The notes: generated by a model not told the origin, from the sequence alone. A stretch of DNA of 64,000 nucleotides from a virus (IMGVR_UViG_2509276065_000002:1-64000); one strand, 5' to 3'; numbered from the stretch's first letter, positions 29,561-30,509 are shown. Numbers and translations: made by a program.

Positions 29561-29793
29561 GCCAGACTCCCGAACAGGCTCGGCTGGCGCCAGCTGGTCG
29601 CCATGGTGACCGCCCGTGGCTTTGGGGTGATCAGCTCCACTACCTCGTCGTAGGTGAGGGTCGTCACGACCCGTCCAGCGGCTTCGTGCACGGACCGGAA
29701 GGTCTCACGGACTCCTGGCAGGTCCGCCGAGCAGCCGAACCACTTGCCTGCCGCGTCCCGCGACACCAGAAAGTGCGTCGCGGCCTGAGTCAC
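29557..29793 (-). CDS. Hypothetical early protein
   Basis: GTGA-coupled at both ends. Confidence 0.55.
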   Translation of the reverse strand: MTQAATHFLVSRDAAGKWFGCSADLPGVRETFRSVHEAAGRVVTTLTYDEVVELITPKPRAVTMATSWRQPSLFGSLA

Positions 29794-30509
29794 GAGCGGC
29801 CCCCATTCCCGGCCACCAAGGCCTGCGCGTGGCGTTTCTGCAGCTCGCTGATGTCGAGCTTGCCCAGCACGTCGCGCCGGTACGCGTCGCGCGCCAGGCC
29901 TTTCTTGCCGAGCGCGTCGAGGAGCTGCTCGGTGAGTTCGTCTCGGTTTCCCTCGACGTCGGCCGTGCCCTGCAGGTCCTGCCACTGGGCGCCTTCCTCG
30001 ACGTGGTTCAGGTGGGGCACAGGCCGGGCCGATGGGATCGACGGCGGCTCAACCGGTGGGGCTTTCTGGGAGGCCCTGCCGGGCAGGGCGAAGCGCTCGT
30101 CACGGCGGCCACCTCGGAACACTGCGAGGGCCACATAGCCGATGTCCCCTTCACCGGTCTCGACCAGGTGCGGCGGGTCAGTGGGCTTGGCCCCACGCGA
30201 GTACTTCACCGCCGCGGGCAGGCGCATCTTCCGGGTATCGACCGCAGCAAGTTCCCGGCGCTTCCAGACGTGCCCACGGCACCACACGCAGGCGTCGCCG
30301 TCATCGCTCGTGAACTTACGCCCGCCCAGCAGCGCCCAGTGGAAGTCGCTTTCGTTCTCCAGTGGCAGCTGGAAGCCACCGGCAGGGATCTCTCCGGAGT
30401 GATAGCCCTGCGCGCCCCACTGGGCGAGCGCGCGGAACTGACCGCCCTCTTCGAACGCCACGGTGATCTGCTCACCGAGCGGGCCGGTGAGGTGCAGTTG
30501 GCCACTCAC
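29790..30509 (-). CDS. ddrB: DdrB-family ssDNA binding/annealing protein with C-terminal extension
   Basis: SGEIPAGGFQLPLENESDFHWALLG, RRELAAVDTRKMRLPAAVKYSRGAK, YVALAVFRGG match Deinococcus DdrB as I remember it. Confidence 0.92.
   Translation of the reverse strand: MSGQLHLTGPLGEQITVAFEEGGQFRALAQWGAQGYHSGEIPAGGFQLPLENESDFHWALLGGRKFTSDDGDACVWCRGHVWKRRELAAVDTRKMRLPAAVKYSRGAKPTDPPHLVETGEGDIGYVALAVFRGGRRDERFALPGRASQKAPPVEPPSIPSARPVPHLNHVEEGAQWQDLQGTADVEGNRDELTEQLLDALGKKGLARDAYRRDVLGKLDISELQKRHAQALVAGNGGRS

Follow-up and report, generated by a model that had tools for sequence, protein, structure and literature searches.

A DdrB-like gene in the early operon of a Deinococcaceae prophage as a candidate single-strand annealing gene

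The DNA analysed here is a stretch of 64,000 nucleotides, IMGVR_UViG_2509276065_000002:1-64000 (the window; positions are counted from its first letter), which holds a complete siphovirus-like prophage of a Deinococcaceae genome. Inside the repressed early operon of this prophage lies a gene for a protein of the DdrB family, which is predicted with moderate confidence to be the prophage's own single-stranded DNA (ssDNA) binding and annealing protein, in the role of Erf, RecT/Redβ or Sak. Judging by sequence and gene neighbourhood, DdrB is a recurrent early-operon gene of temperate phages of Deinococcota and a frequent plasmid gene, and a function in phage and plasmid recombination is also probable for it. 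In the literature DdrB is described as an ssDNA-annealing protein with a part in RecA-independent single-strand annealing and in plasmid transformation (Xu 2010 and Bouthier de la Tour 2011, cited in PMC8072749; PMC3834827). The gene and the parts of its protein are as follows (pLDDT, predicted local distance difference test).

29790..30509, minus strand: phage ddrB-like gene, 239 aa, GTG start, TGA stop at 29790-29792
30075..30509, minus strand: predicted DdrB ssDNA-binding/annealing core, residues 1-145 (PF12747, pLDDT, fold, contact residues)
29955..30074, minus strand: proline-rich disordered linker, residues 146-185 (about 40), pLDDT 46-73
29793..29954, minus strand: C-terminal three-helix domain, residues 186-239, pLDDT about 90, specific to this phage-type DdrB

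The family assignment of the core is clear. Pfam family PF12747 (DdrB), with a curated cut-off of 25 bits, matches residues 6-133 at E = 7e-43 and 146 bits over profile positions 3-131 of 132, and the six-frame PF12747 search of the genome gave this copy 147.5 bits. With phmmer, the protein hit the DdrB crystal chains of D. geothermalis (E = 1e-47) and D. radiodurans (E = 3e-46) in the PDB, and its identity to both is about 50% over residues 1-145. An AlphaFold model of the 239-aa protein was built on an alignment of 51 homologues. Residues 1-145 are modelled at pLDDT > 90, residues 146-185 or so are of low confidence and disordered, and helices at 186-200, 204-213 and 220-235 have a pLDDT of about 90. 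Foldseek superposed the N-terminal domain on PDB 4NOE and 4HQB with a target template modelling (TM) score of 0.93-0.94 and a root mean square deviation (rmsd) of 1.1-1.5 Å; the best match was 4NOE_E (E = 9e-20, target TM 0.94, rmsd 1.1 Å). The protein does not belong to the OB-fold single-stranded DNA-binding proteins (SSBs; PF00436), its model being a DdrB fold, and it has no match to the Rad52-superfamily annealase families PF03837, PF04404 and PF04098. An earlier reading made from the sequence only had seen DdrB motifs over about 145 aa, and the Pfam score, the PDB chain matches and the model on 4NOE bear this out. The folding of the C-terminal domain, which it had put forward as a check, gave the three helices listed above.

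Nine residues of D. radiodurans DdrB are shown or proposed to contact ssDNA: R64, W66, R83, R85, K94, K102, K108, R132 and K135 (PMC3834827). In the alignment to the PDB chain, six of these (R64, R85, K94, K102, K108, R132) are identical in the phage protein and the other three are conservatively changed (W66F, R83K, K135R); in addition, Q137 is replaced by D. The F at the W66 position and the K at the R83 position are also present in the chromosomal DdrB of the host. The third-position GC content (GC3) of the phage gene is 0.84, like that of the neighbouring genes.

The second line of evidence is the position of the gene. The main features of the prophage around it are given below, where L035 is a syntenic prophage of another genus and L055 a second prophage of the same genome, both described further on (ORF, open reading frame).

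34527..35885, plus strand: tyrosine integrase (PF00589)
33809-34624, plus strand: Abi_alpha (abortive infection) gene (Pfam E = 4e-54)
32558..33121, plus strand, divergent: XRE-type repressor (Pfam HTH_31/HTH_3), with a 41% identical homologue in L035
32232..32548, no strand: presumed operon control region with four 16-bp palindromic operators TTATG-N6-CRTAA (pattern scan)
32492-32464, minus strand: promoter-like site (promoter scan)
32197..32529, minus strand: Cro-like HTH_3 protein, first gene of the leftward early operon (Pfam)
31829..32200, minus strand: HTH_17 excisionase-like early gene (PF12728), found in L035 and, more distantly, in the Erf prophage L055
30506..30850, minus strand: upstream 114-aa ORF without a family match, its stop overlapping the ddrB start
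29557..29793, minus strand: downstream 78-aa ORF without a family match, its GTG overlapping the ddrB stop
28949..29560, minus strand: 203-aa early protein, partly conserved in L035
27599..28720, minus strand: lambda O-like replication initiator (phrog_8540, phrog_270, phrog_391, E = 3e-9 to 4e-6)
25678..26076, minus strand: small VRR-NUC/resolvase-like nuclease (phrog_93 4e-21, phrog_5702, weak VRR_NUC match)
3691..22818, minus strand: structural and packaging module with TerL, portal, head protease, major head protein, tail proteins and tape measure (PHROG)

Along the minus strand, the Cro-like HTH_3 gene is followed by the HTH_17 gene, three or four small genes, DdrB, ORFs of 78, 203 and 72 aa, and the O-like initiator. 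Beyond the initiator come small genes, including an HTH protein and the VRR-NUC/resolvase-like nuclease, and then the packaging and structural genes. On the other side of the control region lie the divergent XRE repressor, an IrrE-like ORF, the Abi_alpha gene and the tyrosine integrase. Since both the structural module and the integrase are present, the element is a complete tailed prophage. The Abi_alpha gene, which the IrrE-like gene and the integrase flank in the lysogeny module, probably encodes a defence function of the prophage.

Within this operon ddrB is coupled to both of its neighbours, as the sequence-only reading had stated. The TGA of the upstream ORF overlaps the GTG of ddrB in a GTGA at 30509-30506; the TGA of ddrB in turn overlaps the GTG of the 78-aa ORF, whose stop overlaps the gene at 28949-29560 by another GTGA. 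The operator palindromes (seven strand-wise matches versus 0.6 expected) lie 1.7-2 kb upstream of ddrB, and scans for promoters and terminators detected no such site between the control region and ddrB. The coupling and the lack of an intervening promoter-like or terminator-like site make ddrB an internal member of the repressed early operon.

A direct comparison is offered by L055 (G000:C1:1550000-1569999), the other prophage of this genome, which lies about 40 kb past the window. Compared with the window, the integrase of L055 is 54% identical and its HTH_17 gene 32%. Erf (229 aa) follows HTH_17 and two small genes in L055, and after it come ORFs of 193, 76, 61 and 308 aa, a DnaB helicase and methylases.

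L055 9625-10314, minus strand: Erf, by family
L055 5826-7205, minus strand: DnaB helicase

L055 also encodes two DNA methylases. DdrB in the window sits between HTH_17 and the O-like initiator, the slot that Erf fills in L055, and neither prophage carries an SSB. The claim that DdrB occupies the phage recombinase position thus finds an Erf gene at the matching place, and the arrangement extends to other elements.

Other candidates for the annealing role were sought in the early region and in the whole host genome (4.5 Mb, from a Deinococcaceae genus other than the large genus Deinococcus). Pfam and PHROG searches, with unknowns followed down to E = 1, assigned no early ORF to an annealase, SSB or exonuclease family. 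In six-frame family searches of the genome, the SSB matches were restricted to C1:1999238-1999915, a Rad52/DdrA match was found at C1:3743219, outside the window, two Erf genes were also outside it, and RecT gave nothing above threshold. Both kinds of search agree with the earlier reading, which had found no RecT, Erf, Sak, Sak4 or SSB gene in the early region, with Sak4 covered solely by ORF-level Pfam scans. No known annealase turned up among the hypothetical early genes; the sequence-only reading had said that finding one there would refute its proposal. A lone Erf-family gene elsewhere in the genome (L056:9682-10332(-), G000:C1:652942-653298; 216 aa, 82 bits) is flanked by an MFS transporter and a pseudouridine synthase, neither of which is phage-like, and it may be a domesticated or remnant annealase.

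The same arrangement recurs in other mobile elements of Deinococcota. The closest case is L035 (G001:C3 = L035 = L081), a syntenic prophage on a contig of an uncultured Deinococcaceae metagenome-assembled genome from another genus. By tblastn, L035 and the window are 70% identical in the integrase, 41% in the repressor, 36% in the IrrE-like protein, 52% in HTH_17, 54% in the 152-aa protein, 58% in the nuclease and 27% in the initiator. The L035 DdrB (gene 9675-10418(-)) is 53% identical to that of the window over the full length, C-terminal domain included. The L035 genome (G001) contains no Erf and has its SSB genes on other contigs, and Pfam detected no other annealase or SSB-type family among the L035 early ORFs. 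A search for further prophages of this lineage with the 152-aa early protein returned the window and G001 only.

In IMG/VR a single DdrB protein as query retrieved nothing, while the DdrB alignment as query retrieved four records (L077, L078, L079, L080). L079 is a 55-kb record, 97% complete by CheckV, with a TerL (phrog_38). One of its strands carries a serine integrase and a DdrO-like repressor, and the other carries small genes, a 230-aa DdrB, a primase directly downstream of DdrB, a helicase and a methyltransferase. In the provirus L077 a tyrosine integrase is followed by DdrB (about 253 aa); next come a methyltransferase, a Rep initiator, a DnaB-like helicase and ParB. The SSB, Erf and RecT families have no match in L077 or L079. 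L078 and L080 look plasmid-type. The TerL_ATPase family (PF03354) matched no terminase in the four records and phrog_38 matched only that of L079, so the viral status of L077, L078 and L080 rests on the IMG/VR classification. The search for phage-borne DdrB, along the lines of another check proposed earlier for Deinococcus prophages, turned up L035, L077 and L079.

An order-wide search found DdrB in 120 of the 124 other genomes of the family, about 30 of which carry two to four copies; Erf is present in only 12 of 125 family genomes. Besides L035, 19 of the extra DdrB copies were retrieved, all of them on contigs apart from that of the best-scoring copy, and most of these contigs are plasmid-sized, at 25-640 kb. 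Their scanned neighbours encode Topo III-like topoisomerases, UvrD-like and RecD2-like helicases, SNF2/N6-methylase proteins of 1700-2400 aa, a C5 methylase and a Tn3 transposase. In a FEMS review (PMC6300522, Table 4), D. gobiensis, D. proteolyticus and D. peraridilitoris are listed with two or three ddrB genes each, with no comment on where these lie.

The 1700-2400-aa proteins adjoin plasmid DdrB genes. The one scanned for domains, L041:10347-16691(-), joins an N6-methylase to an SNF2 helicase and contains an intein or HINT insertion, and relatives occur in L039, L040, L042, L078 and L080. Outside the family, a very divergent 141-aa DdrB-like gene on a 135-kb contig (L054, genome G147, from another family of the order) adjoins a 623-aa protein with all three DnaN sliding-clamp domains (the pair lies at 7481-9352, minus strand, and 9792-10217, plus strand). 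It is the only DdrB match among the 23 genomes of its family.

The C-terminal part of DdrB differs strongly between these groups. Typical Deinococcus DdrBs are mostly 178-213 aa long, with a Pro/Ala/Gln-rich tail ending in ...EEETPF or a variant. The acidic ...(E/D)(T/I)PF tip is found in most Deinococcus best copies (L003-L031, L058-L073), with exceptions that include L003, L022, L065, L066 and L072. Compared with these, the phage protein does have a helical C-terminal domain in place of an acidic PF tail, as had been noticed from the sequence; the host's own DdrB, a short 160-aa form, likewise lacks the ...EEETPF tip. Plasmid-type copies (L036-L053) are mostly 150-170 aa, and most share a ...(N/E)AAD tip where chromosomal copies have ...EEETPF; this tip may be a distinct motif for binding partners. 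Folded-looking helical modules form the C-terminus of phage-type copies and of some others. Clustering of the tails gave at least six unrelated modules, and on this sequence evidence DdrB is a core combined with interchangeable C-terminal adaptors.

The module of the window is common to the window, L035 and the metagenomic proteins P0004 and P0005 only, at 46-74% identity, and the linker motif ARPVPHL is kept in all four in alignments. It was found nowhere else in 125 family genomes or in a genome collection of 185,579 species. A profile of the domain run against 1.84 billion representative proteins returned P0004, P0005 and two TPR-like repeat proteins only. The repeat proteins were not taken as homologues, the common LGK..EA..AYR-type motif being regarded as a motif-level resemblance.

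The following mechanism is proposed. Inactivation of the repressor, probably by DNA damage through the phage IrrE/DdrO-like pair, would lead to transcription of the early operon, and DdrB would be made together with the replication proteins. Its pentameric rings would coat ssDNA and pair complementary strands by face-to-face ring contacts, as in D. radiodurans DdrB. In this way the phage protein could serve recombination-dependent replication, help phage DNA to circularise or be repaired, and promote recombination with related phages. The three-helix domain on its flexible linker most likely tethers the ring to a phage-specific partner, not to the host SSB interactome, and the DdrB core would be a module that mobile elements reuse with interchangeable C-terminal adaptors.

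Several points weigh against an annealing role. Gene position cannot by itself tell an annealase from an SSB, and the first descriptions of DdrB presented it as an alternative SSB (PMC3739723, PMC2879517). The small genes on either side of Erf in L055 have no homology to the ones around DdrB, so the two prophages share an equivalent gene order and not a clean cassette swap. The plasmid-like record L078 holds a two-OB SSB together with DdrB, which means that DdrB is not always the sole ssDNA-binding protein of a mobile element. Pfam and PHROG revealed no YqaJ/lambda-Exo or RecE among the neighbours of ddrB; there is a VRR-NUC-like small nuclease 3.7 kb downstream, and some neighbours have no assigned function. 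Erf-bearing phages are often without an exonuclease partner too. For the C-terminal domain, modelled separately, Foldseek and VIA-align searches of the PDB gave generic helical bundles only (best Z 6.4), with no fold family standing out. Finally, a novel annealase could hide among the early proteins of 78, 80, 107, 114, 143, 152, 203 and 299 aa. ESM Atlas models of the 203-aa and 299-aa proteins were of low confidence and matched nothing usable, and the 299-, 152- and 143-aa proteins found nothing in sequence searches of the PDB.

The main alternative, which is unlikely, is that the protein acts as an SSB only, coating and protecting ssDNA in phage replication with no real part in recombination. 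This would suit a prophage without an OB-fold SSB, the location of ddrB directly upstream of replication genes in phage records, and the topoisomerase and helicase genes next to the plasmid-type copies. Neighbourhoods of this kind are common for plasmid SSB genes. The first characterisation of DdrB as an alternative SSB also speaks for it. However, the Erf prophage L055 is without an SSB as well, so such phages appear to manage on host SSB, and the presence of both proteins in L078 argues against simple redundancy. Characterised DdrB, moreover, has an annealing activity that is absent from SSB (PMC3834827).

The host encodes a DdrB of its own, located at C1:2334908, about 850 kb from the prophage (211 bits), and 60% identical to the N-terminal domain of the phage protein. 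A perfect 17-bp radiation/desiccation response motif (RDRM), TTACGCTATTTGCGTAA, lies 11 nucleotides before the ATG of this host gene, and no RDRM was found near the phage ddrB. The prophage operators (16-bp TTATG-N6-CRTAA) have half-sites like those of the host ddrB site (17-bp TTACG-N7-CGTAA, L001:1468-1484) with a spacer one base shorter. A second DdrB could be a lysogenic-conversion gene (moron) that raises the radiation or desiccation tolerance of the host. Extra repair genes are common on Deinococcus accessory replicons, and the ddrB copy number differs among species (Table 4, PMC6300522). Nevertheless this explanation is improbable: the gene is translationally coupled in the middle of a repressed lytic early operon, it has neither a promoter-like site nor an RDRM of its own while the host copy has a perfect RDRM, and the same position is kept in the diverged prophage L035.

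A counter-host device is quite improbable. Here the phage protein would poison host DdrB rings by mixing with them, block host nucleases (RecJ, for example), or protect phage ssDNA against defence systems. Suppression of RecJ by DdrB is reported in vitro (PMC3834827, introduction). Mixed rings are conceivable given the 60% identity of the N-terminal domain to the host copy here and the 85% in L035, and the novel C-terminal domain could redirect them. Against this, the conserved DNA-contact residues are in line with a functional DNA-binding protein, and a role in replication or recombination is the simpler explanation for the replication-gene neighbourhood seen in four different elements.

Phage and host copies were compared in a maximum-likelihood tree built from 127 rows of the core domain, in which the four copies with the window-type C-terminal domain do not cluster. 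The claim that they are polyphyletic was dropped, as an approximately unbiased (AU) test does not reject a single clade (p = 0.49). The L035 core shares 85% of its amino acids and about 83% of its nucleotides with the ddrB of its own host (L057), with a longest exact run of 37 nucleotides, and is closer to that copy than the genes of the two hosts are to each other. This similarity shows gene flow between host and phage ddrB, although the trees give no direction of transfer. It also suggests a fairly recent exchange in the case of L035 and L057. Within the genus of the window (L001, L074, L075, L076) two DdrB types, about 50% identical, serve as the only or best copy; two of the copies start with MLHIEFTTDLG... 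and two with M.QxHLTGPLG..., which hints at replacement of the chromosomal gene within the genus.

That the window copy is a recently captured host gene, a passenger without a selected phage role, is very improbable: exchange does occur, as the L035 core shows, but the window copy is only about 60% identical to that of its host and lies on a long branch yet has an intact frame, and this divergence together with the typical GC3, the conserved contact residues and a dedicated C-terminal domain in four proteins at 46-74% identity argues for long-term maintenance under selection.

A wider evolutionary reading, quite unlikely, is that DdrB may at root be an ssDNA-annealing module of mobile elements, and that chromosomal ddrB, possibly with the IrrE/DdrO switch, was domesticated from the early region of a temperate phage. 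In the prophage the DdrO-like repressor, the IrrE-like protease, the RDRM-like operators and ddrB may then still form one functional unit. DdrB may, on the same reading, represent an added structural class of phage and plasmid annealases beside the Rad52-like, Rad51-like and gp2.5-like ones.

Full-text searches of the literature found no description of a phage-encoded DdrB. The matching texts deal with the chromosomal Deinococcus protein or with P1 DdrB, which is unrelated and protects against restriction, or report a metagenome survey, and the literature treats DdrB as a Deinococcus-specific chromosomal repair protein. Phage genomes in INPHARED have no tblastn match to DdrB, and PHROGs contains no DdrB family. 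The phage protein adds a fold that is not Rad52, RecA or OB to the candidate phage annealases, and it is a host-matched candidate for oligonucleotide or double-stranded DNA recombineering in Deinococcus and its relatives. The modular design, one core with at least six unrelated adaptors, should tell which partners DdrB works with, and the origin of radiation-response genes becomes open to comparative test.

Among known systems, the closest is DdrB of D. radiodurans and D. geothermalis (DR_0070; 4HQB, 4NOE, 4EXW), which shares the Pfam family and the fold over residues 1-145, and whose pentameric ssDNA-binding and annealing mechanism is presumed for the phage copy. In these species ddrB is a stand-alone chromosomal gene preceded by a 17-bp RDRM, whereas the phage copy lies in a coupled early operon without an RDRM of its own. 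The canonical protein ends in a low-complexity tail with an acidic ...EEETPF tip, and the phage protein in a linker and a folded three-helix domain.

The Rad52-superfamily phage annealases (P22 Erf, lambda Redβ, RecT, Sak) occupy the same slot of the early operon, between the regulatory or excision genes and the replication genes. They also have a similar layout, with an N-terminal oligomeric core, a flexible linker and a small helical C-terminal domain. In Redβ the helical C-terminal domain binds lambda Exo and SSB. There is, however, no sequence or fold relationship between the two groups, as DdrB has its own fold, and the family searches of the neighbours of ddrB, some of which have no assigned function, gave no adjacent 5'-3' exonuclease of the kind that partners the annealase in two-component recombinases.

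The mobile-element SSBs with partner-recruiting C-termini (plasmid SSBs, T7 gp2.5) resemble the phage DdrB in being mobile ssDNA binders, as is predicted for DdrB, with a C-terminus that likely recruits partners. Plasmid-type DdrB is also like plasmid SSB in its neighbours, the Topo III-like, UvrD-like and RecD2-like genes. In contrast to plasmid SSBs and gp2.5, DdrB is not an OB fold, and in place of an acidic tail it carries folded helical adaptors or the short ...AAD tip.

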